A DNA stretch of 64,000 bases from a virus (taxonomy: Duplodnaviria; Caudoviricetes), in the IMG/VR virus record IMGVR_UViG_3300036987_000310, positions 160,001-224,000 of that record. The stretch is one strand, 5' to 3'. Below are positions 7,540 to 62,241 of the stretch, piece after piece. The notes beneath the pieces were generated by a model. That model worked only from the letters and a program-made list of their open reading frames with translations, made no database searches and was not told the DNA's origin. A program made the translations under genes and the position numbers. Position 1 is the stretch's first letter. Each line of letters opens with the position of its first letter.

Positions 7540-7588
7540 CCTTAGCCACGATCAGAGGTATGCACCCAATACTTAGGCGTGAGCACGC

Positions 7589-10825: not shown

Positions 10826-12437
10826 CCCCTACCCCTACTGCTTGTCCCCAAGACGCCAAGATGAAATCGCCGTTGTAGGCTGCCACCTCTCCCCATTGAT
10901 CTTCGGGGAGAGCAAACGTGTCCAGCACAGACATGGTAGCAGAATCGATCAACACAGCATTCGTGTCCCACACCCCTGTCACGAGCAAACGCCCCGTTCC
11001 AAGGTCATCGAAGGCGAGGCCATCAGGGTCGCCAACGTCGTCTCCTATGTATATGGAACTCACGAATACGCAGTCCGTGTCGTACTTCCGCACAGTGTTG
11101 TTAGTGATCTCCGTGATATAAATGCTGCTGCCGTAAACAGCCACGTTCATTGCTTCGATCACATCGACAGAAGTCGCGACTTCTGTCAACGAGGTGTCGA
11201 ACTTCCGGAGCGTCGCTGAATAGGACTGCCCCCCGGCAGCCCAGACGTGACCCAACCCAAACCGGATTTTGCGTATGTAGCCGTAGTCACTGTTGTAGAT
11301 CGCGACCGAGGGAGCCACTATCTCAGGCGACGCCCCCAAGCAGGCCGCCGTGGACCACTTGAAAACACCGTAAGTGCGGTTGTTGAGCCCATCCCGACCC
11401 CAACCGATGGCGTAGAAGTTGCCAGCGCCATCGGCGCACACGCTGGTGACTTGACGCCCGGACGTAGAGAAGAGGGGCAAAGACCCCCAACCGACGACAG
11501 TGTTGGTAGCCTTTGCGATGATTGCGACGTGCCCGTTTTTCCACCCCGCACAGTAGACGTAGTCGGCGTCCTGAGCGAGATCTCGGACGCCCTGGTTGAT
11601 GTGTGGTGCCACTGAAACCGAAATACTGCTGGAGTCGATCAGACTGATGCGGAGCACGTCAGGGTAATTGGTATTGGCCTGGTCTTGTTCGGCAACCCAG
11701 ATGTAGTCTCCATCCCGAATGACAGGGCGGGGGGATGTCAAGGCCCACGCAATGCTCACCCTGACGAAGAGCCCTTCCGCTGCGGTGTCCGACAGAGGTG
11801 CCGGGATCGTGTCGATGCCGATAACTCTTTGCTGGGTCGGGCTGGCAGGGTCCCAGTCCGCGAGGTCGCCCCCGAGGGTGATGCTACCACCTCCCCCACC
11901 CGTCCCTGGTTCCCATTGGGCTTCTGCTTCATTCCAAGTTAGCGTGTTGCCATCAGCCGGCGTTGTTGCCGCGACGGCTAGATTTTGAATTTTGACTACT
12001 GTGTTGGATCCAGGGTCGCCTGTCACGTCCCCATCAAGTTCCGCAACTGTTCCTTCCGGGCCCTGTGGGCCCACTGGCCCTGTTGACCCAGGAGATCCAG
12101 GAGATCCAGGAGGCCCTGATGGCCCTGTTGATCCAGGAGGCCCTGGGGGCCCGACGACGTCTCTAAGCTTTGTGGAAGCTTTCCCGAATTTCATCAGGAA
12201 GGTATACCCGTATAAGCCTGCTCCGTCAGCTATTTGGATTAAAAAACATTCAAGTAAATAATAGTCCCTGGTCAAACCAAGAATTTCATAAATTTTGTTT
12301 ATTGATGGGTATGTTGTAACTTCAACGAGCGGGTTTGGAACCACGCCATCAGAGTTAAGCAAGACGGATGCCCTGATCGTTCCCGGCTGATCAGTCAATA
12401 GCTTTGTTGCGCCTATGGTCGTGGTCATGTTATCCAT
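10818..12437 (-). CDS. collagen-repeat fibre protein with probable beta-propeller C-terminus
   Basis: DQPGT N-domain, GPPGPPG repeats, DGDVTG...IQNLAV fibre repeat, YVTN/NHL-like blades; start uncertain (12428-12536). Confidence 0.75.
   Translation of the reverse strand: MDNMTTTIGATKLLTDQPGTIRASVLLNSDGVVPNPLVEVTTYPSINKIYEILGLTRDYYLLECFLIQIADGAGLYGYTFLMKFGKASTKLRDVVGPPGPPGSTGPSGPPGSPGSPGSTGPVGPQGPEGTVAELDGDVTGDPGSNTVVKIQNLAVAATTPADGNTLTWNEAEAQWEPGTGGGGGSITLGGDLADWDPASPTQQRVIGIDTIPAPLSDTAAEGLFVRVSIAWALTSPRPVIRDGDYIWVAEQDQANTNYPDVLRISLIDSSSISVSVAPHINQGVRDLAQDADYVYCAGWKNGHVAIIAKATNTVVGWGSLPLFSTSGRQVTSVCADGAGNFYAIGWGRDGLNNRTYGVFKWSTAACLGASPEIVAPSVAIYNSDYGYIRKIRFGLGHVWAAGGQSYSATLRKFDTSLTEVATSVDVIEAMNVAVYGSSIYITEITNNTVRKYDTDCVFVSSIYIGDDVGDPDGLAFDDLGTGRLLVTGVWDTNAVLIDSATMSVLDTFALPEDQWGEVAAYNGDFILASWGQAVGVGVD
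12057..12150 (-). repeat. collagen Gly-X-Y coding repeats
   Basis: GPPGPPGSTGPSGPPGSPGSPGSTGPVGPQG. Confidence 0.8.
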
Positions 12438-12682
12438 TATATGACGCATGAAAAAGCAAACGCCATGGTTGAACACACGCAAATTCGCAGGCACGCGTTG
12501 AAAAATTTTAACGTAGGAACTGTGTTCAACGTTCAAGGATGGCCGTGGGTCCTGATTTGCTGCGAGCCTGAAAAAGACGGGAACGGGAACAAACTAACCC
12601 TGAAAATGATGACGAATGCTGAAGAAGCTCTGTGGCGAGTTATGATATCGTGACGATGTGCCTTTTATTTGGTGATTTTGGC

Positions 12683-20188: not shown

Positions 20189-20402
20189 CTATCCGTCCAT
20201 CACCTTCTGCACCGTCCACTCGTTTCTTGCAACTTCTCTGCAGTTAACATACTCAGACGGCGGCTTGTCGTACAATTGCAAATCGTCCGTCCAACAAACC
20301 CCTGGCGCTCCATGCACCATGGCGCCGCATTTTTCACAGCATCTTCGAACGGAGCCATACGGTTGATCTCGCTGAGTCACAAGGTGTAAAATTTCGGTCA
20401 TG
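20189..20402 (-). CDS. Cys-rich protein, tag family
   Basis: CEKC...NCREVARNEWTVQKVMDG*. Confidence 0.65.
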
Positions 20403-20456
20403 AGACAGGTCCCTCGCTGGCCGCCAAACGTGTCAAAACTGGTTCGCAAAAACGGA

Positions 20457-48419: not shown

Positions 48420-48881
48420 TCACGCCGACATGACTTTTTGAACTAAGAGATTTTCCTTCGCTTGCTCAGTTTGCTCCTTTGTTGCAAACTTATGGACAAT
48501 TTTCTTTAAATTGAACTTTTTCGTTCTGAGAACCGTCAGATCTGCTCCGTGTTCTAGGAGCAGTTTGCACACTTCAAAGTGCCCTGCTCGTGCAACACAC
48601 CGGAGCGCCCAATCATCATCTGCATGAACGTTCGCTCCGTGTTCTAGAAGCAGTTTGCACACTTCCAAGTGCTTACCCTTTGCAGCATATTGAAGTGCCC
48701 AGTCATCATTTGCATGAACGTTCGCCCCGTTTTCTAGAAACAATCTGCACACTTCTAAGTGCCCCCATGCTGCAGCATACTGGAGCGCCAAATCGTTTTT
48801 CGCGTGAACATCTGCTCCGTGTTCCAAGAGCAGTTTGCACGTCTCTAGATACCCAAGTTTTGCAGCTTTGGTCAGATCCAT
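48420..48881 (-). CDS. ankyrin-repeat protein (30-aa repeats, about 4) with constant tag-bearing tail
   Basis: GADVHAxxDxAL..AA..GHLEVCKLLLE; ends EQAKENLLVQKVMSA*. Confidence 0.9.
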   Translation of the reverse strand: MDLTKAAKLGYLETCKLLLEHGADVHAKNDLALQYAAAWGHLEVCRLFLENGANVHANDDWALQYAAKGKHLEVCKLLLEHGANVHADDDWALRCVARAGHFEVCKLLLEHGADLTVLRTKKFNLKKIVHKFATKEQTEQAKENLLVQKVMSA

Positions 48882-48890
48882 CCAGTCACC

Positions 48891-49262
48891 TCATGCGCTC
48901 ATGACTTTTTGAATGGAAAGAGTTTTTCTTGCTTGCTCAATTTGTTCTTTCGTTGCAAATTCTTTGACAGTTTTCATTAAATTGAACTTTTTCGTTCTGA
49001 AAACTGTCAAATCTGCTCCGTATTCTAGGAGCAGTTTGCACACTTCCGTGTGTCTTTCTGACGTAGCACACCGGAGCGCATAATTGTTGTCTGCATGAAC
49101 GTTCGCTCCATTTTCCAAGAGCAATTTGCACACTTCCAAGTGCCCATTCCGTGCAGCATGCTGAAGCGCCCAGTCTTTATTTGCGTGAACGTTTGCCCCG
49201 TTTTCTAGGAGCAATTTGCACACTTCCAAGTGCCTATGTGCTGCAGCTTTGATCAGATCCAT
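48891..49262 (-). CDS. ankyrin-repeat protein (about 3 repeats) with constant tail
   Basis: Same repeat; ends IQKVMSA*. Confidence 0.9.
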   Translation of the reverse strand: MDLIKAAAHRHLEVCKLLLENGANVHANKDWALQHAARNGHLEVCKLLLENGANVHADNNYALRCATSERHTEVCKLLLEYGADLTVFRTKKFNLMKTVKEFATKEQIEQARKTLSIQKVMSA

Positions 49263-49271
49263 CCAGTCACC

Positions 49272-49913
49272 TCAAGTGTTCATGACTTTTTGAACGGAAA
49301 GTTCACTTTTTGCTTGCTCAGTTTGCTCTTTCGTTGCAAATTTATTAACGACCTTTTTCAAATTGAACTTTTTCGTTCTGAAAATTGTCAGATTTGCTCC
49401 GTTTTCCAAAAGCAGTTTGCACACTTCAAAGTGTCCGTTTGACGCAGCGTATCGGAGCACATAATCGTTATCTACATGAATGTCTGCTCCGTTTTCCAGA
49501 AGCAGTTTGCACACTTCCAGATGCCCATTCCGTGCAGCATACTGGAGTGCATAATTGTTATCTACATGAATGTCTGCTCCATGTTCTAGGAGCAATTTGC
49601 ACACTTCTGGGTGCCCGTTTGACGCAGCGCGTCGGAGCGACCAGTCATTACCTACATGAACGTTCGCCCCATGTTCTAGGAACAATTTGCACACTTCCAA
49701 GTGCCCATTTAACGCAGCAATTTGAAGCGCCCAGTCATCATCTGCATGAATGTCTGCTCCGTGTTCCAAGAGCAATTTGCACACTTCCAGATGCCCATTC
49801 CGTGCAGCTTGTTGGAGCGCCCAGTCACTGTGTGCGTGAATGTCTGCTCCGTTCTCTAGGAACAGTTTGCACACTTCCAAGTGCCCATTCTGTGCGGCTT
49901 CGATCAGACCCAT
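49272..49913 (-). CDS. ankyrin-repeat protein (about 6 repeats) with constant tail
   Basis: Same repeat; ends VQKVMNT*. Confidence 0.9.
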   Translation of the reverse strand: MGLIEAAQNGHLEVCKLFLENGADIHAHSDWALQQAARNGHLEVCKLLLEHGADIHADDDWALQIAALNGHLEVCKLFLEHGANVHVGNDWSLRRAASNGHPEVCKLLLEHGADIHVDNNYALQYAARNGHLEVCKLLLENGADIHVDNDYVLRYAASNGHFEVCKLLLENGANLTIFRTKKFNLKKVVNKFATKEQTEQAKSELSVQKVMNT

Positions 49914-49915
49914 CC

Positions 49916-49947
49916 AGTCACCTCCGCGATCGAATACTCGCGATCGG
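49916..49947 (-). promoter_or_regulatory. GTA-core promoter-like motif + GGAGGTGAC RBS
   Basis: CGATCGCGAGTATTCGATCGCGGAGGTGAC. Confidence 0.65.
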
Positions 49948-49983
49948 CGCTGGCTTGCGTTTTATTGTGAACGGAATGATGAA

Positions 49984-50346
49984 CTACGCGCGGTTGCCGA
50001 AGTTCTCGCGCGCGTCGTCGACGTGGTCGTCGTTGGTGTTGGCGCCGTTGGTGTTGGCGCCATAGTCTCGCGTCCCCGCTCCGGGCCGTTGGCGCCGTTG
50101 CCTCATGTTGTCCGCGGGCCTTGGGGCGCCTACTGACCTGGCCGGTCGCATGTGCACGTACACGGGCGAGCCTTCTGTGTCCTCGTCCGGAATCGGACAA
50201 GAGCAATGCAGTTCCATCATTCCGAGCGGGATGGTGAAGTCAAGCATTTCGACGCCGCTTTGAGCGACTCTCAGCTTTGCTTGAAGCACCACTTGATTGA
50301 CGTTGGCGTACTTGTTTGGCGGGCCGCTTTTCTCAAAATTGTTCAT
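49984..50346 (-). CDS. hypothetical protein
   Basis: GAGG RBS; disordered C-terminus with GANTN x2. Confidence 0.6.
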   Translation of the reverse strand: MNNFEKSGPPNKYANVNQVVLQAKLRVAQSGVEMLDFTIPLGMMELHCSCPIPDEDTEGSPVYVHMRPARSVGAPRPADNMRQRRQRPGAGTRDYGANTNGANTNDDHVDDARENFGNRA

Positions 50347-50370
50347 TGAATCCTCTAACGAATTGTTGCT

Positions 50371-50754
50371 TTATTCCAACTGAATTTTTCCGACGTATCC
50401 TTCTTTATCGAGAGCCTCCGGAGTTGGTCGGCCGAGTTGTAGGCCGATGATTTCTGTCAGCACCATCGCATCATCGTCGCTTGTCAGGCGCAATTTTTCT
50501 CTGACGTATGAAGGGCTCAGAAATCCGTTTTTCGCGGTGAAAATTGCCGAGCCGCTGAGGACCCCATCGCCCAACAGAGACACCACCCATGAATTTTCTT
50601 GGCACCCAAGAAGTTTGCAAGCGGAGGCGGGGACCCTGGCGAATGACATGACGTACCTCGTTCCATTCCCTGGCTGGTACTCCATTATTTTACAATACGG
50701 AGCCGGATCGTCGACAATCCATTTTATGGCTTCTTGTATTTCTTTGGTTCTCAT
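50371..50754 (-). CDS. hypothetical protein
   Basis: GAGGTGAC RBS; YQPGNGTRY motif. Confidence 0.7.
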   Translation of the reverse strand: MRTKEIQEAIKWIVDDPAPYCKIMEYQPGNGTRYVMSFARVPASACKLLGCQENSWVVSLLGDGVLSGSAIFTAKNGFLSPSYVREKLRLTSDDDAMVLTEIIGLQLGRPTPEALDKEGYVGKIQLE

Positions 50755-50766
50755 TTCGTCACCTCT

Positions 50767-50997
50767 TTAAAAGTCGTGAATTTCCAAAGCCATCGACTGA
50801 AACGTCAGCCAGGCGTCGCGGTCCACCTCGTGCGGGTGCGGCGCGTTCCAACATTTGTCGCACCACGTCAGCAAGTACAGGGCGCCGGGCTCGATTTCCG
50901 CCGTCCAGTGCGTCGCTTTCCCACGGCAGGTGTCGCACTCGTCCGACCTGATTGCAATCATCGCCTTGACCTCGCCATTGTCAGTTCTGACAATCAT
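50767..50997 (-). CDS. treble-clef-like Zn-finger protein, tag family
   Basis: CDTC..KATHW...WCDKC...EVDRDAWLTFQSMALEIHDF*. Confidence 0.7.
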   Translation of the reverse strand: MIVRTDNGEVKAMIAIRSDECDTCRGKATHWTAEIEPGALYLLTWCDKCWNAPHPHEVDRDAWLTFQSMALEIHDF

Positions 50998-51284
50998 GTT
51001 TCGTGCACTTCTTTGAGCAAGACGTCTGGATGCGCAACTTCAGCCCAATACAATTTCGTGAGCTCGTCGAGATCCTTCCGACACTTGAACTCGCTGCTGT
51101 GAATCAATGAAATTAGCGTCACAATTCCGCCGCGAGTCTGCCCGGCAATTTTGACACAAGCCTCCCTGGTGTGCCAGTATTGATCCCAGCTATGTTTGAC
51201 TAGCCCGGCTTTCAAAATGCAAGCGGCCAGAGCGGGCAAGTTTCTCCGTGCTTCTTCAATCAGGGCATCATCGGCGTCGTTCAT
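50994..51284 (-). CDS. hypothetical protein, tag family
   Basis: Ends HPDVLLKEVHET*. Confidence 0.7.
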   Translation of the reverse strand: MNDADDALIEEARRNLPALAACILKAGLVKHSWDQYWHTREACVKIAGQTRGGIVTLISLIHSSEFKCRKDLDELTKLYWAEVAHPDVLLKEVHET

Positions 51285-51613
51285 TTCTTTCCCTTCTTGG
51301 CCAGTTCTCTCATGTGGGCTCGTGCTGCCTTGACGCAGGCTCCCCACACCTTCAGAGCGTCGTCCTCGTTGTCGGCGTACACGTAGTGTCGGAATTCTTC
51401 CGTGTCCCCGTATCCCGAAAACACTGACTTGTCAGACGGGCAACGCATCGCCATGCCAAACCCGAATTCGACGGCGGAATTCGTATCGTTATCGCCGAAA
51501 GTCGTCATTCCGGCATATCCCGGATGTTGGTCGAGGTATTCCCACTCGTTGCTTCCTAGTTTCTCAACGGCCGCGTCAAGCTTTTTCGAATAGTTGATTT
51601 CGCCCCGTTTCAT
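51281..51613 (-). CDS. hypothetical protein
   Basis: ATGA-coupled at both ends. Confidence 0.65.
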   Translation of the reverse strand: MKRGEINYSKKLDAAVEKLGSNEWEYLDQHPGYAGMTTFGDNDTNSAVEFGFGMAMRCPSDKSVFSGYGDTEEFRHYVYADNEDDALKVWGACVKAARAHMRELAKKGKK

Positions 51614-52038
51614 TTCTCGTGAACTCCTTCCACGATCGACTCGCGGATTAGCTGGAATAGCTGGTTTTTCGTAAGTCCTCTGTCCATTAGGTCCGCGGCA
51701 GCCTTCTTGAAAGCTTCTTCCTTCTTTGTGCGCACTCGGCGCAGCAGCGCGCTCCGGCTTTTCTCGGCGCCGCTTTGAATCCTTTTGACAGCTGCTTCGA
51801 GCTCGCGAAGCTGTTGCGGGTCCTGCCGGGCTTTCTCCGCTGTCGAGAGAATCGTGAGAACGAGCTTATTGCTGTCAACGTGACTGGGCGCTGCGTGCTG
51901 CAGCTTGCCCAAAACATCTTCAGCTTTGTCCTCTGGGTAGAGCAGGAGCTTCACTGTGCATTCAGGTTCCAAAACAATTGTCACGCTCACCCTGCTCGAT
52001 CCATCCAGCCAAAGCTTTCCGCTAATCTTGTGCGACAT
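51610..52038 (-). CDS. hypothetical protein, tag family
   Basis: Ends LIRESIVEGVHEK*. Confidence 0.7.
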   Translation of the reverse strand: MSHKISGKLWLDGSSRVSVTIVLEPECTVKLLLYPEDKAEDVLGKLQHAAPSHVDSNKLVLTILSTAEKARQDPQQLRELEAAVKRIQSGAEKSRSALLRRVRTKKEEAFKKAAADLMDRGLTKNQLFQLIRESIVEGVHEK

Positions 52039-52603
52039 TGCCGGGACTCCTTCTTCCCCTGTCCGATACGCGCACAATCGGCCGAGCTGCGCCGTGATTC
52101 AGGAGTGGCCACCCGCCTTCGAGGTCGTCAATCAGGGATCCGGCTGCCTGCCTGTCGATCATTCTGCTCAGCACGTAGTTTCGATTAAATGGAACGCCAA
52201 AGTACTCGCGCTCGTCCAACCACGTTCCAATTACGCGATCTGGCAGTTGGCGGCGCCGGGCGCAGACCTTTGAGCGCATCGTGACGTCCACCACTTTTCC
52301 ACCGATCTCCAGCCATCCGTGCAGCACCGGCAGCACTGCGTGCACGCAGTATCCCTCCACGTATGTGAATCGAGACTCTGGGTCCATTGTTGCCAAAATT
52401 ATTTGGCTGTTGTAGTAGCATTGCTTGATCGGAAATCTGCCGCGACGCAAAACCCGCATGACATAAGCCGTCTCGTTCTTCGTCAATTCTTGCGACAAAG
52501 TTGGGCGGCCCTCGCGAAGCACGTACCCCTCAAAGGAATCCGGGCGTCCCATCTGGTCGGCCATCCATTTCATTTGCTCGAGATATTGACGCAGCTCATT
52601 CAT
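52022..52603 (-). CDS. conserved hypothetical phage protein
   Basis: KQCYYNS...YVEGY...PVLHGW; start MNELRQY, ATGA-coupled. Confidence 0.7.
   Translation of the reverse strand: MNELRQYLEQMKWMADQMGRPDSFEGYVLREGRPTLSQELTKNETAYVMRVLRRGRFPIKQCYYNSQIILATMDPESRFTYVEGYCVHAVLPVLHGWLEIGGKVVDVTMRSKVCARRRQLPDRVIGTWLDEREYFGVPFNRNYVLSRMIDRQAAGSLIDDLEGGWPLLNHGAARPIVRVSDRGRRSPGNVAQD
52061..52072 (-). promoter_or_regulatory. GTA-core motif copy
   Basis: CGCGTATCGGAC upstream of 51610-52038. Confidence 0.5.
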
Positions 52604-52917
52604 GGCCGAAACCACAGTGACGCGACACCCAAATTTTGGGCATTTTCTGACACGAGCAGCGCGTTTCCGAAAGCCACCATGTGCAGCGAGCACTGGGAAC
52701 ATGTGACACGCTTTCCATGGTCCAGCTTCTCGACATTGGCGTTGCACCGGGGACACCGTGCGCCAACTTCTTCCTTGACGATGCAAGACGGGTCGATTCG
52801 GCTTCGAAGCGTGGCGAGCACAACGTATCGATTGCGCGGAAGCCGTTCGACGCAGGAATCGCTGGTCGCAACAAATTTCCCCGGCATGAACGCTGGGGCA
52901 ATTCTGTAATCGTTCAT
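52600..52917 (-). CDS. zinc-ribbon protein
   Basis: CPRC...CSQC. Confidence 0.65.
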   Translation of the reverse strand: MNDYRIAPAFMPGKFVATSDSCVERLPRNRYVVLATLRSRIDPSCIVKEEVGARCPRCNANVEKLDHGKRVTCSQCSLHMVAFGNALLVSENAQNLGVASLWFRP

Positions 52918-53477
52918 GATAGCGTGACCTCCGCGACCTGAATCAGGTCCTCTAGCTCTTGCTCAGTTTCGGGAACTGTTTTGTGAGTCAGGAGTTGGCA
53001 CACGAGGCCGAACTTGGACGTTTTCGGCAGCTTGTTGACCAGTTCTTGCACGGACATCGTGCGAGTTGTTCTCAAGTCTTCTATATAGAAGCCTGCAGCT
53101 TGCACCAGCTCTCTGATGGACAACCGTTTTTCGTTGTCCAAAATCAAGTCCCTTGACCTAGACCGGCAAATGAACTCGTTAACCAGCTCTTTCGGGATCG
53201 GGCGCGTTTTAGCACATTTGCGCTCGTACGACATTGCCAGTTTGGCAAGGCTCTCAGTAACGCGACCTCCAAACTTCGGATTCATGCGCCTTTCAAGATA
53301 GCGGCGCACAGCTTCGGTCGGATCGCATTGGGGGCAGTTTGCGACGTGATTTTTGACAATTGGATACAGAATGATGTTGTCCACCATGAACTGACTTACC
53401 GGGCCAGTCTTGTCTGTTTTGAAGTGTCCGTTCTTGCCATGCCCGTCGCCTTTGACTGTGATGACGCAGTCGAACAT
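52914..53477 (-). CDS. hypothetical protein (variant tail VAEVTLS)
   Basis: GGAGGTGAC RBS; H..NCPQC; ends TEQELEDLIQVAEVTLS*. Confidence 0.75.
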   Translation of the reverse strand: MFDCVITVKGDGHGKNGHFKTDKTGPVSQFMVDNIILYPIVKNHVANCPQCDPTEAVRRYLERRMNPKFGGRVTESLAKLAMSYERKCAKTRPIPKELVNEFICRSRSRDLILDNEKRLSIRELVQAAGFYIEDLRTTRTMSVQELVNKLPKTSKFGLVCQLLTHKTVPETEQELEDLIQVAEVTLS

Positions 53478-53480
53478 TCA

Positions 53481-53510
53481 GTCACCTCCGCCGCCCGATA
53501 CTCGCGATCG
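53481..53510 (-). promoter_or_regulatory. GTA-core promoter-like motif + RBS
   Basis: CGATCGCGAGTATCGGGCGGCGGAGGTGAC. Confidence 0.65.
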
Positions 53511-53581
53511 CTGCGAGTTTGCAACTTCATTCAGTCGTCATGGACTTGTGCTTGCACGGCGGCAAGACTCGCTTGAAACCT

Positions 53582-54109
53582 TCAAGCCTCCTGCACCGAT
53601 TTGATGAGCTTGACCCGGTCACGATATAGCGAATCGTGTTGCAGTTCGTACCGGATGTCGAGGCACTGGGATAGCTTCGCCCAGAATCGAAGCTTCTGCG
53701 CAGTCTTCCCATTCTTGACCACTTTCCATGTGATGGAATCGTAGTCTTTGTCGTCCTTGAGCGCCGATTTGCTGAAAGCCCTGATGTAGACCCGGTCGCA
53801 TTCGAGCACCAGGCCGGCCGGCAGCGAAACTTGAGCTCGTTTGAGGGATCCGCCATAGCGCTGGCCGGGAGGCGGATCCTCGTACACGCTCCACTGCCTC
53901 GACTCCGGGTCGATCAGTCCGAGAGCCTTAGCAAAGTTGAGGTTTCGCCTCTCGAAATAGAGCGTGAATTCCCAAGGCGCGGCAAGCACGAGCCTGTCGC
54001 CACATGCGGGGATGAACAGCCGCTGCTTGTCAGTCAAGTTGTCGAAGGCCACTGTCAACTTGCTCAGATCAACTGTTGCGGACTTTGCTTCCTTCTTTGC
54101 TTTTGCCAT
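53582..54109 (-). CDS. hypothetical phage protein, tag family
   Basis: Ends RVKLIKSVQEA*. Confidence 0.75.
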   Translation of the reverse strand: MAKAKKEAKSATVDLSKLTVAFDNLTDKQRLFIPACGDRLVLAAPWEFTLYFERRNLNFAKALGLIDPESRQWSVYEDPPPGQRYGGSLKRAQVSLPAGLVLECDRVYIRAFSKSALKDDKDYDSITWKVVKNGKTAQKLRFWAKLSQCLDIRYELQHDSLYRDRVKLIKSVQEA

Positions 54110-54490
54110 TCATGCCTCCATCACGTTTTCCATGATCAATTCGTCCAAGGCTGATTGCAAATCGTCCAAATGCGCGTATGGCTTGCCTTCTCCGAAGGCA
54201 CATGACCCGTCCACGACTCGAAGGTTCTGCCCGAGCTCCAACACCCATACGCGCATTCGGGTCCCCACGTCGTCGTCAATATACTGGGCGCTATCCACCC
54301 ATCTGATGGAAAACTGGTTCTCGCCAACGCGCAGCGGGGTGCCGCTTTTGAACTCGAGGGACCTATCTTGGCGCGACCATCGCCTCAACCGGTTCCAAAG
54401 CCGATTCCACCCTTCCACCACTTCAGGACGGACGCACTCTGGAATCGTGGAAGGCGTGTGATACGGCCGGACGCCAGATCTTTTCCTCAT
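54110..54490 (-). CDS. hypothetical protein, tag family
   Basis: Ends LDELIMENVMEA*. Confidence 0.7.
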   Translation of the reverse strand: MRKRSGVRPYHTPSTIPECVRPEVVEGWNRLWNRLRRWSRQDRSLEFKSGTPLRVGENQFSIRWVDSAQYIDDDVGTRMRVWVLELGQNLRVVDGSCAFGEGKPYAHLDDLQSALDELIMENVMEA

Positions 54491-54861
54491 GTTTCATGAA
54501 CCTCTCTCACCGAGTTCAGCTCGTCTGCAATCTTGCAAGCTTCAGAATAGCTGTCGGCCTCGTTGACGACAGCGTCGTCGCATTTGACTGTTGTGGACAG
54601 GGCTCGGTACCAACCCGAGGCGTCTTGCAACACAAGCCAGGGCTTGGACGCACGGCGCGGATCCTCGTGTTTGCCATACTGCTTTTTGGTGATGATCAAG
54701 AGTTTTGCCGACCTCACGATTGCCGTCGGCCCAAAACCGTCAAATTTGACGCGACAAATTAAGGATGTCGTGCCTGTGGTTTTGCCCCATCTGTCTTTTG
54801 AGCAAGTGACTGATGCAGACGGGTCTTCTTTCACCAAAAAGACGTATCTCACTCGCATCAC
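54487..54861 (-). CDS. hypothetical protein, tag family
   Basis: Ends IADELNSVREVHET*; C-terminal half resembles 60593-60775. Confidence 0.7.
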   Translation of the reverse strand: MMRVRYVFLVKEDPSASVTCSKDRWGKTTGTTSLICRVKFDGFGPTAIVRSAKLLIITKKQYGKHEDPRRASKPWLVLQDASGWYRALSTTVKCDDAVVNEADSYSEACKIADELNSVREVHET

Positions 54862-54930
54862 CTCCTCAGTCCAGATGCATGCTCCTATCAGTTGCCCGTT
54901 CGAGTGTCACTTTCACGATTCGAATGATCA

Positions 54931-55227
54931 TCATGCTCCTCGGTTCACTGGCTTCGGCCCAAGCATTGGGCACTCGCCCGGAACATCTTCAGGAATTGGG
55001 GGCGCACGCTGGACGTTGACATGCAGTTCTACCCCATCGCCTTCGTCTTCCATCGTCGTCATGATGCCGTACGTGGAAACCACGTACTCGTTTCCGTTGG
55101 AAAGCATGGTGACTACAATCGAAGCGGAGTGACTGACGCCTTCGGCTTCCTGCTTGTCCATGAATTCCTGAAACCTTCGCGCGAACTTCCACGCTGTGGC
55201 ATCGGCATCGGATCGTGTTTTCCTCAT
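54931..55227 (-). CDS. hypothetical protein
   Basis: GGGAG RBS; start MRKTRSDA. Confidence 0.6.
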   Translation of the reverse strand: MRKTRSDADATAWKFARRFQEFMDKQEAEGVSHSASIVVTMLSNGNEYVVSTYGIMTTMEDEGDGVELHVNVQRAPPIPEDVPGECPMLGPKPVNRGA

Positions 55228-55261
55228 TCGTAGCTCCCTTCGCACGCGTGTTGGGTCCAGA

Positions 55262-55278
55262 CCGCGATCGGATACCCA
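55262..55278 (-). promoter_or_regulatory. GTA-core motif copy
   Basis: GGGTATCCGATCGCGG. Confidence 0.45.
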
Positions 55279-55304
55279 CGCGAGTCGCGCAATTCCGCCG
55301 GCCT

Positions 55305-56090
55305 TCAGACCACGTGCTTCCACTTTTGACCACTTCGTATACCGCGAACCAAAGCGTTGCTTACGCCGAAAAGCTCGGCAATTTTTCGTGTTCCGAGACC
55401 AGTCATGCTCCGTATTTGACGAATGTCTTCATCATGAAGTTTTGAACCCCGTCTGTCTGACCCGATGGCATTTTCTAAATATGGAGGTCTGACCCCACGA
55501 GCTTTCGAATTTCTGCTTAGCAGCTCGGCCACACATTCATCGCTGCATACTTTCGTTGGTCTGTTTGAAAACTTAGCAAACTGGGACCCGCACACAACAC
55601 ATGTAGCTGGCTTGGCGGGTATGTACTCGTGCTCTATTCCAGCTTTTACTGCCAAGCCGTGCATGAACTGAGAAGGGACATTCGAGTACAGACCATCGGT
55701 CAGTTTGGACTGAATAAAATAAACGTCATTGTTCTTCGGCGAAACATGAAGAACGAGCACGGGCATTTTCATGGCTTCGACGAACCACATCTTCGTCGCC
55801 ATCTTTTTGGCAACAGCAGAGGTTATCTCAATGAGGAAGCGTTGCCCGTCTCGGCTAGCCACTGCGTCTATCGGGAAACTATGAGAATTTTCTGATAACC
55901 AGAATATGTCGCTGAACCCTTCTTTCGGAAGGATTGTGTGGACAGCACGCTGCTCGACAGTGCGTCCGGCGTTTGTTTTATCGGACGGCGATGCACCAGA
56001 CTGGACAGCATAGCCCCACACTTCTCCGTGCAGCCACCGTTCGAACTTACACCATTTTTTGATTTTGTCGAGTGATTCCGGAGTGCTCAT
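55305..56090 (-). CDS. putative homing endonuclease: PD-(D/E)xK-like domain + Zn finger + C-terminal HTH
   Basis: FPIDAVA...FLIEIT; CVVC...VCSDEC; SKL...IRQIR...IAELFGVS...IRSGQKWKHV (C-terminal HTH typical of phage HEGs). Confidence 0.65.
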   Translation of the reverse strand: MSTPESLDKIKKWCKFERWLHGEVWGYAVQSGASPSDKTNAGRTVEQRAVHTILPKEGFSDIFWLSENSHSFPIDAVASRDGQRFLIEITSAVAKKMATKMWFVEAMKMPVLVLHVSPKNNDVYFIQSKLTDGLYSNVPSQFMHGLAVKAGIEHEYIPAKPATCVVCGSQFAKFSNRPTKVCSDECVAELLSRNSKARGVRPPYLENAIGSDRRGSKLHDEDIRQIRSMTGLGTRKIAELFGVSNALVRGIRSGQKWKHVV

Positions 56091-56103
56091 ATGAGCACTC
56101 CGG
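56078..56103. promoter_or_regulatory. 26-bp perfect palindrome covering RBS and start codon of the endonuclease
   Basis: CCGGAGTGCTCATATGAGCACTCCGG. Confidence 0.8.
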
Positions 56104-56113
56104 TATTAAAGAC

Positions 56114-57328
56114 TCATTCATGATCGCGTGTCGCCACATAGCTCGCACATTTGGGGAGGCCATCGTCCGTCATGTCTGCAAAGCGGTACGTGATGGTCGA
56201 GCCGATCGCCGGAGGGTTCTCCCGATCCTTGGCAGTCAGTCCGGTGCCGACGTTGAAGGTCTTGCCGTTCGGCATCCGAACAATCAGGCCGCCGGTCTTG
56301 CCCTTGTTCGCCTTCTTGCCAGCCTCATGCCCGATGACAACGGCCTCGGCATCCTGAAACGGCTTGAACTTCAACAGAGTGCTGGACCTTCGCGGCTCGT
56401 AGCGGCTTCCCGGCTTGCGAAACATGAGCCCCTCGGCTCCTGCGGCTGCCGCAGCCTTCAAACTGGCCTCTGCCTCTTGGCGGCTCTTGCACTCCGTGTG
56501 CGAATGAGCGTAGGCGTACTTCATGCTGGACATTCCGCAAAGGTGTGTCAGACGCTGCTCGAATCCCCCGGGGAAATTCGGGGCGTCGAACATGACGAAT
56601 CGGACCTGCTCCCAGGCACGGCCGGAACCGGCGCTCTTAACAACCGAGATGGTCTTCTGGAACATCTTGCGGCCCATCCACAACTCCCCGTCGAGAGGCT
56701 CCTGCGGCAGCCCGGCGGTGAAGAATCCGGGCGCGGCGTAGACGTTGCCTTGTCTTGAGATGAACACCTCGCCGTTCCAATAGGCCCGCACGCCGTCGAG
56801 CTTTTCAGACTCCAGCCACCCGGTCGGGTCGAAATCGTCCTCGACCGTGTTCGCCAGAAGTACAGGCGGTCCGAACAAATCGGTCTTTTCGTCCTGGCGG
56901 AGCTTTCGTCCCTTGCGGGCCTCTTCTTCGGCCACGATGGCGGCTTTCTCCTCCTCGGAAAAGGGGATGAACCCGCCAAATTTGTTGACCCGCCGCGCCT
57001 TGTCGCGCGCCGCTGCCCCGCTCTGGCCCGTCGCGGGGTTGCCGCGCGCCTCGCCGGACCGGGCAGCTACCTCGGCCACTGCCGGAGCGGCGAGCACGTC
57101 CGTGCCACCTCCGGACGCCGCAGCTGGCTTGCCTCCAGTGCGGGCATCTTCAACCGCTTGGCCTCGCTGTGCAATGATATGTTTGCACGTGCGAAGATCG
57201 ATTGGTTTGCTCTGTCGGGTCCAGGCCGGGCACGAGCAGCTATATACCTCTCCGCGCCGGAGCAGCTTGTAGGGCTTGGCCCCGGAACCTTGAACATATC
57301 GGATTTCGCCGTCTTGCCAGTCAGACAT
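56114..57328 (-). CDS. ATP-dependent DNA ligase with N-terminal SWIM zinc finger
   Basis: CSCPAW...CKH (SWIM); SEKLDGVRA motif I; LDGELW; EGLMFR; LLKFKP; OB domain. Confidence 0.92.
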   Translation of the reverse strand: MSDWQDGEIRYVQGSGAKPYKLLRRGEVYSCSCPAWTRQSKPIDLRTCKHIIAQRGQAVEDARTGGKPAAASGGGTDVLAAPAVAEVAARSGEARGNPATGQSGAAARDKARRVNKFGGFIPFSEEEKAAIVAEEEARKGRKLRQDEKTDLFGPPVLLANTVEDDFDPTGWLESEKLDGVRAYWNGEVFISRQGNVYAAPGFFTAGLPQEPLDGELWMGRKMFQKTISVVKSAGSGRAWEQVRFVMFDAPNFPGGFEQRLTHLCGMSSMKYAYAHSHTECKSRQEAEASLKAAAAAGAEGLMFRKPGSRYEPRRSSTLLKFKPFQDAEAVVIGHEAGKKANKGKTGGLIVRMPNGKTFNVGTGLTAKDRENPPAIGSTITYRFADMTDDGLPKCASYVATRDHE

Positions 57329-57476
57329 TTGTCACCTCATTCGAGTCGTCTTTCGCCTTATTGACGGCGAAAGACGCTGCTTCAAGTTCCTGAGTCAACC
57401 GTTCCTGCCAAGTCTTGCGCAACTCTTTAGACTCTAGGCGTTCATCGGTCAATTCCACGATAGTGCAAGTCTTCAT
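57321..57476 (-). CDS. hypothetical protein (51 aa)
   Basis: GAGGTGAC RBS. Confidence 0.55.
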   Translation of the reverse strand: MKTCTIVELTDERLESKELRKTWQERLTQELEAASFAVNKAKDDSNEVTNV

Positions 57477-57480
57477 ATTT

Positions 57481-57520
57481 GTCACCTCTCGCGTCCGATA
57501 CGCGGCGCGCGGCCCGATCG
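57481..57520 (-). promoter_or_regulatory. GTA-core promoter-like motif + RBS
   Basis: CGCGTATCGGACGCGAGAGGTGAC; 21 bp identical to copy at 62970. Confidence 0.65.
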
Positions 57521-57600
57521 TCGCTCGGCCTCAGGTTGCATGCTCTGTTTGGCAGGATTTCAGGCGTTTGGCGACATCAGACTCGGTACCGAAGAACATC

Positions 57601-57656
57601 AGCGTCATGACCGTCCAGTTCGACACAGAAGCATTGAACTGGACGGTCATGACGCT
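57601..57656. repeat. perfect 21-bp inverted repeat with 14-nt spacer
   Basis: AGCGTCATGACCGTCCAGTTC-N14-GAACTGGACGGTCATGACGCT. Confidence 0.9.
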
Positions 57657-58081
57657 TGCACCTCCTCCACTAACTCTTCCAACACCGCCGTGACGGCCAG
57701 CCCCCTGATTTTGGCCACCACATGCGGCGGAAACAGCTCGACATCCCCGATCCACTCCCACAAAACCCTGTGTTGCATCGCGCCCATCAACGCTCCCTGC
57801 GGGTCGCAGAGGAACGTGGGAACATGGACGTCCAGCCCGGCATCATGCAAGAATGGCTCGAGTTTCATGGTGATGTTGATGAATGTTGAGCTGACTGTCG
57901 GGACGCGGTGTGGGGCGAAGAGTAAATGGTTGTCTGTTTCTTTGACTCGCGAAATTTTGAATTTGGCCCGGCTCCAAGCCGAAGCCAAATGTTGGCTCAA
58001 ATAATCTTTTTGAGCTTGATATAAACTGAGCCGGGCGTTGTCGAATTGGTCCTGGATGACCTGGTATTCACGCTTGGTCAT
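57647..58081 (-). CDS. hypothetical protein, tag family
   Basis: Ends LEELVEEVQAS*. Confidence 0.7.
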   Translation of the reverse strand: MTKREYQVIQDQFDNARLSLYQAQKDYLSQHLASAWSRAKFKISRVKETDNHLLFAPHRVPTVSSTFINITMKLEPFLHDAGLDVHVPTFLCDPQGALMGAMQHRVLWEWIGDVELFPPHVVAKIRGLAVTAVLEELVEEVQAS

Positions 58082-58443
58082 GACGCTTGCACCCCCATCA
58101 CGAGCAAGTCTGGGCGATGCTCTTGGAGCAGCTTCTCAAGAAGCTCTGCTGGGTCTTCGCGCCAGAACGTCAGGTTCAGATACCCTCCGTTGCCTTTGTG
58201 CCAGGTCACCCAGACGTCCCCGCCTCCGGCAGCTTCCCACCCTTGCAGAAAACATCGGTTTGGGTAGCTCATTTCCCAGTTTTCTGTCTTCTTGGACCAG
58301 GAGTTGTTCTGGTTTGCTCCATCAGAAAACAGTGCCGCCTCGCCCACGATGGAGCGAAACTCGCCGATCTTCTTGAGCCCAGTCGTGCAGAAAATTAGCC
58401 AGACGAGGTCCTGCGCCTTCTTGGAAGCATCGTTCACTTTCAT
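58078..58443 (-). CDS. hypothetical protein, tag family
   Basis: Ends PDLLVMGVQAS*. Confidence 0.7.
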   Translation of the reverse strand: MKVNDASKKAQDLVWLIFCTTGLKKIGEFRSIVGEAALFSDGANQNNSWSKKTENWEMSYPNRCFLQGWEAAGGGDVWVTWHKGNGGYLNLTFWREDPAELLEKLLQEHRPDLLVMGVQAS

Positions 58444-58447
58444 GTCA

Positions 58448-58678
58448 TTAGTCCTCCAGCTCGGGGTGGTCTTGCAGAAAGAGAGCACCATCGGCGCCAT
58501 ATCCCTCAGCGGAGGCGACTTCAGCGAGATTTCCCGGGAACCCACCTGGGTCGTTCATGAGGTCAGACGCCGAGTATTTTGTGCCGTTGATTACCCACCC
58601 GTAATCGTCCGGGTCTCCGCCGTTTGACCAGCCCACGACACTCGAAAATTCCAATTGTTCCTTCGTGATCTTCGGCAT
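58448..58678 (-). CDS. hypothetical acidic protein
   Basis: GAGGTGAC RBS. Confidence 0.65.
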   Translation of the reverse strand: MPKITKEQLEFSSVVGWSNGGDPDDYGWVINGTKYSASDLMNDPGGFPGNLAEVASAEGYGADGALFLQDHPELED

Positions 58679-58680
58679 TT

Positions 58681-58705
58681 GTCACCTCTTGGTCGGTACG
58701 CGCCG
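58681..58705 (-). promoter_or_regulatory. GTA-core promoter-like motif + RBS
   Basis: GCGCGTACCGACCAAGAGGTGAC. Confidence 0.55.
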
Positions 58706-58775
58706 AGCGCGCGGATCTGCGCAGCGCTTCAAAAGGTCTTAAGCTATGCGATACGGGCACATACGTCTTGAAGGA

Positions 58776-59018
58776 TCACTTGGTTTTTTGTTCTAGGTTT
58801 TTTGCTGCTTTAATGCAAGCGGCTGCAATGCGTCGCAATTGTTTGGCACTGAAATACCCGGTGGCGTCGACAGTCATGAACTTGTCGTTGGAGGTTATTG
58901 ATATCGCCACTGTGTCCACAACATCGCTTGAAACTTCATGGCTTGCTTGTTGAAGCGGTTCTCCAATTTCAAAGTTGGCGTGATCGTATGGGTCGCCAGC
59001 CACAGCACGAATTATCAT
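58776..59018 (-). CDS. hypothetical protein
   Basis: GGAAGGA RBS. Confidence 0.6.
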   Translation of the reverse strand: MIIRAVAGDPYDHANFEIGEPLQQASHEVSSDVVDTVAISITSNDKFMTVDATGYFSAKQLRRIAAACIKAAKNLEQKTK

Positions 59019-59108
59019 TTTAACATCCTTCCTTGCACGGAAAATCGATCGCTCGGCTCATTTTGTCACTTTGATCATGACGGAACTCGTGGTGGTATTC
59101 ACGCTTGG

Positions 59109-59411
59109 TTATCTGGTATTTGCGGGCCTTGCGCGATCCCAAACCTGCTGCGTGAGCTTCCTGACTTTGGAGACGGAAGCCTCTTCGAACGATGGAAGCC
59201 AGCTTCCCTCCATCTCGACCGGCTCTGTCGTGTTCACAAACGCGTATGCGTTTCGAACCTCGGCAACGCTTTCTCGGTCGAACTGGACTTCGATCGAAAT
59301 TGGCGTCCTTTTCTTGCCTTCCACCGCTTCGGCTGCCACTTCGTAGCTGGCTACGAAGTGGGCTGATTCTGCTCGAAGCACAATCTTTTTCACCCGAATT
59401 GTTGCCGACAT
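59109..59411 (-). CDS. hypothetical protein
   Basis: GGAGGTGAC RBS. Confidence 0.7.
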   Translation of the reverse strand: MSATIRVKKIVLRAESAHFVASYEVAAEAVEGKKRTPISIEVQFDRESVAEVRNAYAFVNTTEPVEMEGSWLPSFEEASVSKVRKLTQQVWDRARPANTR

Positions 59412-59414
59412 TCC

Positions 59415-59454
59415 GTCACCTCCATGACCGAATATGCGAGATCACGCCCGATCG
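59415..59454 (-). promoter_or_regulatory. GTA-core promoter-like motif + RBS
   Basis: CGCATATTCGGTCATGGAGGTGAC. Confidence 0.6.
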
Positions 59455-59539
59455 CCGCTTTACCCTCCCACCCGGTATGTGCGCGATCGGTCGACTGCCA
59501 ACGCGCTCCAGGAGTTATGCACTTTTTAGGCTAAATACC

Positions 59540-60088
59540 TCATGTGCCCATGACTTTTTGAACGGAAAGAATTTTCTTCGCTTGCTCAATCTGCTCTTTC
59601 GTTGCAAATTCCCGAGCTAACCTTTTCAAATTGAAGTTTTCCGTTCTGAGAACCGTTAGGTCTGCCCCGTGTTCTAGGAGCAATTTGCACACTTCAAAAT
59701 TCTCATATTGTGCGGCCCACCGGAGTGAACGATCATTGTGTGCGTGAACGTCTGCCCCATGTTCTAGGAGCAGTTTGCACACTTCCAGGTGCCCATTGTG
59801 CGCAGCACACTCTAACGCATAATCGTCCGCACGAATACCTGCTCCATGTTCTAGGAACAGCTTACATACTTCAAAATGCCCGTTTGATGCAGCAAACTGG
59901 AGCGCCTGATCACCGTCTGCATGAACGTTCGCCCCGTTTTCTAGAAGCAGTTTGCACACTTTAGGGTGTCCGTTTGACGCAGCCCACTGGAGCGCCAAGT
60001 CGTTCTTTGCATGGACGTCCTCCCCGTTCTCTAGAAACAGTTTGCACGCCTCAAAGTCACCAAGTTTTGCGGCTTCGATCAGACCCAT
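59540..60088 (-). CDS. ankyrin-repeat protein (about 5 repeats) with constant tail
   Basis: Start MGLIEAA; ends EQAKKILSVQKVMGT*. Confidence 0.9.
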   Translation of the reverse strand: MGLIEAAKLGDFEACKLFLENGEDVHAKNDLALQWAASNGHPKVCKLLLENGANVHADGDQALQFAASNGHFEVCKLFLEHGAGIRADDYALECAAHNGHLEVCKLLLEHGADVHAHNDRSLRWAAQYENFEVCKLLLEHGADLTVLRTENFNLKRLAREFATKEQIEQAKKILSVQKVMGT

Positions 60089-60098
60089 GGTTTGGCTT

Positions 60099-60539
60099 TC
60101 ACGCTTCTTCCCGAACAGTTTGCACGAGCTCGGAAAGCTTGTTCGCCAGGTCTCTGAGCTCTCCTTCAGGCAATTCCTGCGCAGCCTCGAACAGAGTTTG
60201 CACTCGATCCTTCGGGCGTCGCTCAATTACCTCGAGCGACAACAGCTCCCCGACTTCCGGGTTGAAGGTCCTATACCCGCCTTCGTGGAGCTTCTCCCCC
60301 GTCAGCTTGTCCCGGTTGTAAGCCATGATCGTGAGCACCTTCTGGCCTCGGCGCGTGGTCCACAGGGCTTCCAAGGTCCCCACGTAGTGGCGCCTGTTGC
60401 AGCCTTCCTCGTGAACGGCGCGCTCCGATTCGAGCATTTGCCTGTCTGTTGGCGGCTCCCCGGCCTTGTAAGACACAAAGAGCAAGGAGCCTCGGCCGCA
60501 GTCCCTGAGCTTGTTCACCATCTGGCTCGTTGTCAACAT
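60099..60539 (-). CDS. hypothetical protein
   Basis: GGAGGTGAC RBS; 146 aa. Confidence 0.7.
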   Translation of the reverse strand: MLTTSQMVNKLRDCGRGSLLFVSYKAGEPPTDRQMLESERAVHEEGCNRRHYVGTLEALWTTRRGQKVLTIMAYNRDKLTGEKLHEGGYRTFNPEVGELLSLEVIERRPKDRVQTLFEAAQELPEGELRDLANKLSELVQTVREEA

Positions 60540-60542
60540 TTC

Positions 60543-60568
60543 GTCACCTCCGCAATCGGATACGCGCG
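60543..60568 (-). promoter_or_regulatory. GTA-core promoter-like motif + RBS
   Basis: CGCGCGTATCCGATTGCGGAGGTGAC. Confidence 0.65.
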
Positions 60569-60592
60569 GCAGAGTGCAGGCTTCGCCATCCT

Positions 60593-60775
60593 TCAGTCCA
60601 GATTTACGTCTCTTACCAGGTTTAGATCGTCTGCCAATCGGTAAGCTTCGTTTCTCCGCATGTTCTCGTCAACCAGTTGTTCGTAGCTTCTCAAGCTGTG
60701 TCCGAACCCAAAAACGAGGTATGCCTTCACTCGCGAATCATACACGACCGACCATGCTCCTTGAGTTTCTTTCAT
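60593..60775 (-). CDS. hypothetical protein (variant tail VRDVNLD)
   Basis: Paralogue of C-terminal half of 54487-54861. Confidence 0.6.
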   Translation of the reverse strand: MKETQGAWSVVYDSRVKAYLVFGFGHSLRSYEQLVDENMRRNEAYRLADDLNLVRDVNLD

Positions 60776-61119
60776 TCTTGCATGAGGTTTCTGGCTTCGC
60801 CCAAGTTGTGCCACTCTCGAATCTGATATGCCAAGTCTTCTGCTGACAGCTCCTTGCCCAAGAAGACTTGTTGCTCGCAATGGGAAAAGACCGATTCCAG
60901 TCCGCGCGGGTCGATGTTGCTGTCGTCGTTGCAAACTAGAACAGTGTATTCGTCGGTCAGTCCCGGATCCGGCTCATACTCGATGCATTGGGTGACATAC
61001 CACCATTTCCCCCAGAACCATCCAATGAACGCCATGGAGTTGATGCCGGCGTCGTCGCAATCGGTTTCTTCCATGGAGCCCATGGCTCTTTCGCAAGCAT
61101 CGAGAACAACGTCTTTCAT
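60772..61119 (-). CDS. hypothetical acidic protein (tail LMQE)
   Basis: GGAGGTGAC RBS. Confidence 0.65.
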   Translation of the reverse strand: MKDVVLDACERAMGSMEETDCDDAGINSMAFIGWFWGKWWYVTQCIEYEPDPGLTDEYTVLVCNDDSNIDPRGLESVFSHCEQQVFLGKELSAEDLAYQIREWHNLGEARNLMQE

Positions 61120-61145
61120 CCTGGTCACCTCCGATCCCACGCACA

Positions 61146-61619
61146 TTATGCGCTCATGACTTTTTGAACGGCAAGTTCACTTTTCGCTTGCTCAATTTGT
61201 TCTTCTGTCGCAAACTCTTTAACGACCTTTTTCAAATTGAACTTTTTTGTTCTCAGAACTGTTAGGTCTGCCCCGTGTTTTAGGAGCAGTTTGCACACTT
61301 CAAAGTGCCCATGTGTTGCAGCATATTGGAGCGTCCAATCGTCTTCTGCATGAACGTTTGCTCCATGTTCCAGGAGCAGTTTGCACACTTCCAGATGCCC
61401 ATAGCATGCAGCCCGCTGGAGCGCCCAGTCGTTTTCTGCATAGACGTTTGCTCCGTGTTCCAAGAGCAGTTTGCAAATTTCCAAGTGCCCACTGTATGCA
61501 GCATTTTGGAGCGCACGATCGTTCTTTGCATGGACATCCGCCCCGTTTTCCAGGAGCAGTTTGCACACTTCCAGGTGCCCATTCTGTGCGGCTTCGATCA
61601 GGTCATTGTCGTTTCCCAT
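61146..61619 (-). CDS. ankyrin-repeat protein (about 4 repeats) with constant tail
   Basis: Ends EQAKSELAVQKVMSA*. Confidence 0.9.
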   Translation of the reverse strand: MGNDNDLIEAAQNGHLEVCKLLLENGADVHAKNDRALQNAAYSGHLEICKLLLEHGANVYAENDWALQRAACYGHLEVCKLLLEHGANVHAEDDWTLQYAATHGHFEVCKLLLKHGADLTVLRTKKFNLKKVVKEFATEEQIEQAKSELAVQKVMSA

Positions 61620-62196: not shown

Positions 62197-62222
62197 GCCA
62201 CCTCCGAGATCGAATACGCGGC
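62197..62222 (-). promoter_or_regulatory. GTA-core promoter-like motif + RBS
   Basis: CGCGTATTCGATCTCGGAGGTGGC. Confidence 0.65.
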
Positions 62223-62241
62223 GAGCTCGCGCAGCTCCGAC

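Follow-up and report, generated by a model that had tools for sequence, protein, structure and literature searches.

Five ankyrin paralogues of a huge phage: a probable DARPin-like binder family with a capping repeat and a phage-wide C-terminal tag

Background

Why a bacterial virus should carry five small ankyrin proteins that vary in their number of repeats and all end in the same tail of about 40 residues is the question raised by a window of 64,000 nucleotides, bases 160001-224000 of the IMG/VR virus record IMGVR_UViG_3300036987_000310. The record is 376,674 bp long, has direct terminal repeats and is rated complete. Its source is a huge tailed phage of a bacterial host, and the genes in the window are tightly packed with ribosome-binding sites of the GGAGGTG type. 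The public sequencing runs that contain the window DNA are groundwater, coal and soil metagenomes, and no RNA dataset is listed among the public runs containing the stretch. To our knowledge, phage ankyrins are widely annotated and almost unstudied outside symbiont phages.

An earlier note on this DNA had taken the five proteins for substrate receptors with an invariant docking tail, in the manner of poxvirus ankyrins. The explanation considered best here, and on the whole probable, is a family of binders resembling designed ankyrin repeat proteins (DARPins) with a C-terminal cap and a short tag that is found throughout the phage genome.

Results

The five genes and their repeats

The ankyrin genes are all on the minus strand and encode proteins of 123, 153, 157, 182 and 213 amino acids (aa):

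49272..49913, minus strand: 213-aa ankyrin protein, 6 repeats; it leads a tandem triplet and has the motif TATTCGATCGCGGAGGTGAC upstream
48891..49262, minus strand: 123-aa ankyrin protein, 3 repeats; its junction TGAGGTGACTGGATG recurs unchanged as the next one
48420..48881, minus strand: 153-aa ankyrin protein, 4 repeats; it was modelled with AlphaFold2 (predicted local distance difference test, pLDDT, 95.2)
59540..60088, minus strand: 182-aa ankyrin protein, 5 repeats of which one has 29 aa; the gene is the second in a unit with the upstream motif at 60574
61146..61619, minus strand: 157-aa ankyrin protein, 4 repeats; the gene is the second in a unit with the upstream motif at 62228

The 182-aa protein is counted from the ATG at 60088; the longest open reading frame (ORF) begins at a TTG at 60226. 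All five proteins are above the curated Pfam cut-offs for Ank, Ank_2, Ank_3 and Ank_4 (E 1e-14 to 8e-41), and a Pfam scan of the whole proteins with E up to 1 rendered only chance-level matches besides the ankyrin families. No further ankyrin genes are found in the 376,674-bp genome.

Anchored on C-K-L-L-L, the five proteins contain 22 repeats with a strict period of 30 aa (a 90-bp period was found by Tandem Repeats Finder) and a single repeat of 29 aa. The protein lengths equal 30n+33, with four residues more in the 157-aa protein and one less in the 182-aa protein, which together with the Pfam matches upholds the description of paralogues differing by whole repeats. The TPLH motif is absent, also as described, T-P-L-H being replaced by x-A-L-Q/R. 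Each repeat was aligned by phmmer to the 33-aa DARPin repeat with a gap of 3 residues in the turn.

The copies are old, with a synonymous divergence (dS) of ~0.7-1.0 between paralogues and a DNA identity of 70-84% between repeats. Repeats in first place group together, as do those in last place, and the internal ones are mixed, which fits gain and loss of internal units. The three tandem genes are separated by the identical junction TGAGGTGACTGGATG, which makes a gene and its 9-nt spacer the unit of the tandem array. GAGGTG is found 5 nt upstream of the ATG in these three genes and weak sites in the other two, in agreement with the claim of a phage with bacterial ribosome-binding sites.

The variation within the repeats is unevenly distributed. 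Numbered from W-A-L-Q, positions 1, 4, 5, 8, 9, 28 and 29 have the highest Shannon entropy over the 22 repeats, 1.7-3.2 bits compared with 0-1.5 elsewhere, and the proportion of nonsynonymous sites that differ (pN) is 0.41 at these seven positions and 0.087 at framework positions. The variable positions 8, 9 and 28 align by phmmer to DARPin positions 13, 14 and 33, which we take to be among the positions randomised in DARPin libraries, and positions 1, 4, 5 and 29 belong to the shortened turn and helix 1. The concentration of variable residues in helix 1 proposed earlier is thus borne out by peaks in the loop and in helix 1. Selection analysed by position class separates the variable from the framework positions as expected from that proposal, but does not establish positive selection: since synonymous sites are saturated at the variable codons, the claim is limited to relaxed or diversifying evolution.

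Sequence of and selection on the tail

The tail consists of 42 residues, from G-A-D-L-T-V to the C-terminus, and is found in all five proteins as had been stated. It is not invariant. The tails of two paralogues are 67-81% identical as protein and 73-83% as DNA, half of the alignment columns (22 of 44) are invariant, and the ratio of nonsynonymous to synonymous divergence (dN/dS) is 0.14 for tail codons 1-32 and likewise 0.14 for the framework positions of the repeats. The tail is conserved no better than the repeat framework, and the same purifying selection acts on both.

Synonymous sites of the tail have diverged less in the last ten codons (0.27) than in the first 32 (0.56). A DNA word, TTCAAAAAGTCATG (codons x-Q-K-V-M), is identical in the five paralogues, at 48429-48442 and the equivalent places in the other four. 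This identity and the low synonymous divergence may hint at a constraint at the nucleotide level, or be due to chance.

Searches with the tail sequence gave little. Pfam models compared with ten tails at E up to 10 rendered nothing except two weak chance-level matches, and a PDB sequence search with the tail profile gave one chance match, to the ATKEDIE repeat protein (E 0.04). With hhalign no alignment longer than one column was obtained between the tail profile and the profile of the 30-aa repeat. The phmmer matches to DARPins end at residue 116-120.

The tail as a capping repeat in structure models

Two family members were modelled with AlphaFold2, the 153-aa protein (pLDDT 95.2) and a distant member of 145 aa, P0008 (pLDDT 94.8). 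Both models have the ankyrin solenoid of stacked helix-turn-helix units, and in both the tail is composed of a short turn helix, a small bridge, a helix of 5-6 residues and a helix of 18 residues. The matches to DARPins have Z scores of ~20 and root-mean-square deviations (rmsd) of 1.5-2.6, and Z is 15-20 across DARPins and natural ankyrins.

With VIA-align, residues 1 to 134-137 of 153 superpose on five-repeat DARPins through the C-terminal cap (C-cap), as do residues 1 to 126-135 of 145 in P0008; in one example, 2xee_A, the DARPin is covered up to residue 169 with an rmsd of 2.2-3.0. Four-repeat DARPins cover model residues 1-112 to 118 only. According to the models, the start of the tail therefore occupies the place of a capping repeat, and the first ~31 tail residues appear to be a fifth, C-terminal capping repeat that closes the array. 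The last 10-15 residues extend the helix past the end of the DARPin cap helix in the models. The part of the tail predicted to be the cap is encoded as follows:

48453..48548, minus strand: candidate capping-repeat part of the tail in the 153-aa gene, ~32 codons (GADLTV to EQAK), superposing on the DARPin C-cap in the model; dN/dS 0.14
Other four genes, minus strand: the 96 nt immediately upstream of the last 10 codons

Distant members have K-K-G-Y-P or K-D-G-D-P where the window copies have K-K-F-N-L, and we read these as possibly resembling the G-x-T-P turn of a normal repeat. The assignment as a cap rests on the AlphaFold models because sequence searches do not recognise the tail as a repeat. 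The earlier note had itself named a simple capping repeat as the finding that would speak against a docking tail; the first ~31 residues look like such a cap in the two models, and the last ~10 look like a tag.

The phage-wide C-terminal tag

The end of the tail is not confined to the ankyrins in this genome. The tag is encoded by:

48420..48452, minus strand: C-terminal tag of the 153-aa gene, last 10 codons and stop, matching the genome-wide consensus; helical overhang beyond the cap in the model
48891-48923, 49272-49304, 59540-59572 and 61146-61178, minus strand: the same tag in the other four ankyrin genes

Counted on 518 crude non-overlapping ORFs of the genome, the ending [VI]-[MHQ]-x-x occurs on 78 (~15%); moving the pattern by 1-7 residues reduces the count to 1-18, and 3% of shadow ORFs have it. 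The consensus has E at position -10, V/I/L at -7, V/I at -4, M/H/Q at -3, E/D/N/S at -2 and S/A/E at -1. The ankyrin endings match it position by position (for example E-L-A-V-Q-K-V-M-S-A): V-M-x-x closes all five, position -7 is V or I in each, and two have E at -10. Of the tail that had been described as bearing a tag, only the last ~10 residues thus behave as one, the remaining ~31 being cap-like in the models.

Tagged genes are concentrated at 120-260 kb of the genome, and the median length of their products is small, ~127 aa. No Pfam domain was found on the 27 other tagged proteins of the window, and the only tagged window proteins with a recognisable fold are the ankyrins, a protein-binding fold. 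A C-terminal tag common to many unrelated phage proteins makes a common fate or partner plausible. One unrelated tagged protein, of 86 aa (20189-20449, minus strand), ends in V-Q-K-V-M-D-G and has the pentapeptide V-Q-K-V-M in common with the ankyrin tails.

It was also considered whether the tag is the in-frame footprint of the ribosome-binding site of the next gene. This was rejected because a Shine-Dalgarno-like word is found within the last 18 nt in 19% of tagged and 12% of untagged genes and an overlapping start in 44% and 39%, respectively, because seven different codons are used at tag position -4, and because the real GAGGTG sits past the stop codon in the ankyrin genes.

Relatives and turnover of repeats

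The profile of the tail matches 3 of 1.84 billion cluster representatives and 8 of 5.8 billion proteins, all small ankyrin proteins, and a scan of IMG/VR with the tail profile gave no relatives. Being found on ankyrin proteins only, the tail is not a portable module. A 4.2-kb contig of a distant phage (L007) encodes at least four tailed ankyrin paralogues among other tagged small genes, with a G-x-P turn in the cap where the window copies have F-N-L. A neighbour gene of these ankyrins (L007:3096-3686, minus strand) has a weak match to Peptidase_M10, an HExxH metalloprotease family.

Deposited phage genomes rendered generic repeat matches only, to the ankyrins of Wolbachia phage WO and to an Acinetobacter jumbo-phage record. 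The WO ankyrins are the nearest among them, with 35-42% identity over the repeats, and the matches stop before or early in the tail, none going past query residue 140. In the ESM Atlas, which is used here for leads only, the query protein is near small ankyrin clusters of tailed phages (Uroviricota) by sequence features and near giant-virus ankyrins by structure. The literature searched for ankyrins of jumbo and huge phages and for ankyrins in anti-defence contained nothing specific.

Repeat number differs between relatives. A protein from another metagenome (P0006) has a tail identical to that of the 153-aa copy in 42 of 42 residues and three repeats compared with four; its aligned first and last repeats are identical in 17 of 28 and 14 of 21 residues and no closer to the 153-aa copy than to the others. 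In a contig that is 99.3% identical (L009), the 213-aa gene is shorter by exactly 270 bp, or three repeats, giving a protein of 123 aa, and the two neighbouring genes are 100% identical in DNA. By inspection, the deletion joins repeats 2 and 5 at an exact word of ~33 nt that they have in common, and an error in short-read assembly is therefore possible. Contigs from four public runs are broken at the 213-aa gene and have no 270-bp joint, and a soil contig of ~95% identity spans the six-repeat form.

Smaller length changes are seen nearby. There is a perfect 15-nt tandem repeat at 50031-50061 inside a small gene (49984-50346). A soil relative (~95% identity) lacks 15 nt at 50031 and 18 nt at 49872, both deletions being in frame, and the latter lies within the first repeat of the 213-aa ankyrin gene.

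Upstream motif and other genes of the window

The word (C)GCG-x-GTATTCGATCGCGGAGGTGAC is found on the minus strand at 49923-49948, 59421-59446, 60549-60574 and 62203-62228 and also at genome position 237473 on the plus strand. It stops 3-5 nt upstream of a start codon, at the head of the ankyrin triplet and of the two-gene units to which the remaining two ankyrin genes belong. The strict pattern has 5 copies in the genome compared with 0-1 in shuffled genomes, and it may be a promoter or leader element fused to the ribosome-binding site.

An ATP-dependent DNA ligase (56114-57328, minus strand) has adenylation and OB domains; its N-terminus has a C-x-C...C-x-H pattern resembling a SWIM-type zinc finger and, after it, a linker of low complexity. 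Three large tail-fibre-like genes are found at 6001-12536 (minus strand). Two of them have collagen triple-helix repeats, and one has a C-terminal endosialidase-chaperone domain (Peptidase_S74).

Discussion

The five genes would, in the explanation held here to be probable, encode small cytoplasmic DARPin-like binding proteins. Each would begin with its first repeat at residue 1 to 5, continue with 2 to 5 more repeats of 30 aa and end in a divergent C-terminal cap. The family would have diversified both by gaining and losing whole repeats and by replacing residues at about seven exposed positions of each repeat, in helix 1 and the shortened turn, and each copy probably binds a different protein of the infected bacterium. 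The 42-aa tail would be two parts in one long helix, a seal of ~31 aa on the ankyrin stack and an overhang of ~10 aa carrying the phage-wide tag E-x-x-[VI]-x-x-[VI]-[MHQ]-x-x-COOH. Through the tag, the ankyrins might share a fate or a partner with ~15% of the phage proteins, mostly small ones. The ankyrin genes are in an accessory region of small genes, and the common upstream motif suggests that they are probably co-expressed with other tagged genes. The sealing role of the first ~31 residues is supported by confident structure models and by the pattern of selection.

Several observations weigh against this explanation. The tail is unrecognisable as an ankyrin repeat by sequence, whether with hhalign, Pfam or phmmer, and AlphaFold models are biased towards extending a solenoid. 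Across members whose tails are no more than 25-55% identical, the polar T, K and Q of A-T-K-x-Q in the cap helix are at least 90% conserved, and these residues may form an interaction surface beyond capping.

The earlier proposal, that the repeats catch different targets and the tail docks them on one machine as in poxvirus ANK/F-box or ANK/BC-box proteins, is partly sustained by what was found: there is a family of binders with a hypervariable surface fused to a constant end, and that end carries a short common tag. The tag lies exactly at the C-terminus of 78 genes, the one recognisable fold among tagged window proteins is a protein-binding fold, and the polar residues of the cap helix are conserved. 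The shared machine might be encoded by the phage, which has a MoxR-like AAA+ protein and a von Willebrand factor A (VWA) protein with HExxH and DxSxS motifs, both encoded 5-11 kb beyond the window. The docking part of the proposal fares less well in that the tails have no PRANC or F-box match, a search of the whole genome found no PRANC (PF09372), Skp1 or cullin match, and ~31 of 42 tail residues are explained as a cap. The tag is present on ~15% of the proteome, mostly on small proteins, and a cargo label fits that distribution at least as well as dozens of adaptors. The ankyrins may be substrate receptors or may themselves be cargo that carries the tag, and the receptor reading as a whole is considered unlikely, though not negligibly so. 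A more specific version, with dozens of tagged adaptors and with interchangeable ankyrin catchers that pass host proteins via the 10-residue tag to a phage-encoded reader such as the MoxR and HExxH-VWA pair, is somewhat less likely still. If true, bacterial viruses would have, in the tagged catchers, a counterpart of the poxvirus ANK/F-box adaptor families. A complex prediction for the 153-aa ankyrin and the phage HExxH-VWA protein gave a score of 0.00, which was obtained without controls and speaks neither for nor against binding. As for tetratricopeptide repeat (TPR) proteins acting as carboxylate-clamp readers, no TPR_16 or TPR_8 match was found in the genome with the two models searched.

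The opposite view is that the tail is a capping repeat throughout, its last helix being long, and that V-M-x-x, without any partner, was inherited from a common ancestor. In its favour, tail and scaffold are under equal selection, the modelled fold matches the DARPin C-cap in superposition, and the copies are paralogues, hence their common ending is one evolutionary event. Nevertheless, the ending matches, position by position, a motif whose enrichment right at the C-terminus of unrelated genes of the phage is 4- to 78-fold, distant members in other phages have retained it next to genes that are tagged as well, and the overhang extends past the end of the DARPin cap helix. Only a small probability is given to this view. 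Far more improbable is that the proteins are exported effectors directed at eukaryotes, as the ANKp proteins of sponge phages or the ankyrins of Wolbachia phage WO. It is true that the WO ankyrins are the nearest deposited phage matches and that phage ankyrins affecting eukaryotic cells are documented (bioRxiv 10.1101/608950). However, the WO similarity is a generic similarity of repeats that ends before the tail, and the runs with this DNA come from groundwater, coal and soil. In the window proteins the first ankyrin helix starts as early as residue 1-5 (with M-D-L-I-K-A-A or a similar sequence), which leaves no room for a signal peptide, and none was found by inspection.

The binder family with cap and tag, if correctly read, would be a natural DARPin-like library in a bacterial virus, with a minimal repeat of 30 aa, changes in repeat number and turnover of the binding surface. 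It would also offer a handle on the tag, the ankyrins being the only tagged window proteins with a nameable fold and a likely activity, protein binding. About three quarters of the "docking tail" would be ordinary capping structure, a correction that narrows the candidate signal from 42 to ~10 residues.

Comparison with known systems

The poxvirus ANK/PRANC and parapoxvirus ANK/BC-box adaptors (PMC4353913, PMC9414399, PMC6232478) are likewise a viral multigene family with a variable number of N-terminal repeats and a constant C-terminal element; in the ANK/BC-box class the constant element is also a short motif, like the phage tag. The phage proteins differ in having no PRANC or F-box signature, in being encoded by a genome without a Skp1 or cullin match and in being much smaller, with 3-6 repeats. 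Their constant end appears to be mostly a structural cap, and the tag is common to dozens of non-ankyrin proteins.

Ankyrins encoded by tailed phages are also found in the sponge "Ankyphage" (ANKp; bioRxiv 10.1101/608950) and in Wolbachia phage WO. N-terminal signal peptides are present in two of the three Ankyphage ankyrins, and the habitats are host-associated (same source). In contrast, the window proteins have no signal peptide by inspection, come from groundwater, coal and soil, and form a tagged family of five copies.

In the vWA-MoxR systems with FxSxx-COOH small proteins, too, many small proteins carry a short motif whose distance from the free C-terminus is constant, and MoxR-like and VWA genes are found near the ankyrin genes here. 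The phage motif is different, its carriers include folded ankyrin domains, and a link between tag and reader is putative in this phage.

In fold and size the phage proteins are like DARPins, built of an N-cap, internal repeats and a C-cap, and like natural short ankyrin binders. DARPins are likewise a capped stack with a conserved framework, and the concept of cap and paratope has been described for them (PMC8683736). The phage repeats are 30 aa long with a turn that is 3 residues shorter and without TPLH, and they vary at further positions in helix 1. According to the models, the C-cap helix of the phage proteins also runs ~10 residues longer and on this extension carries the phage-wide tag.

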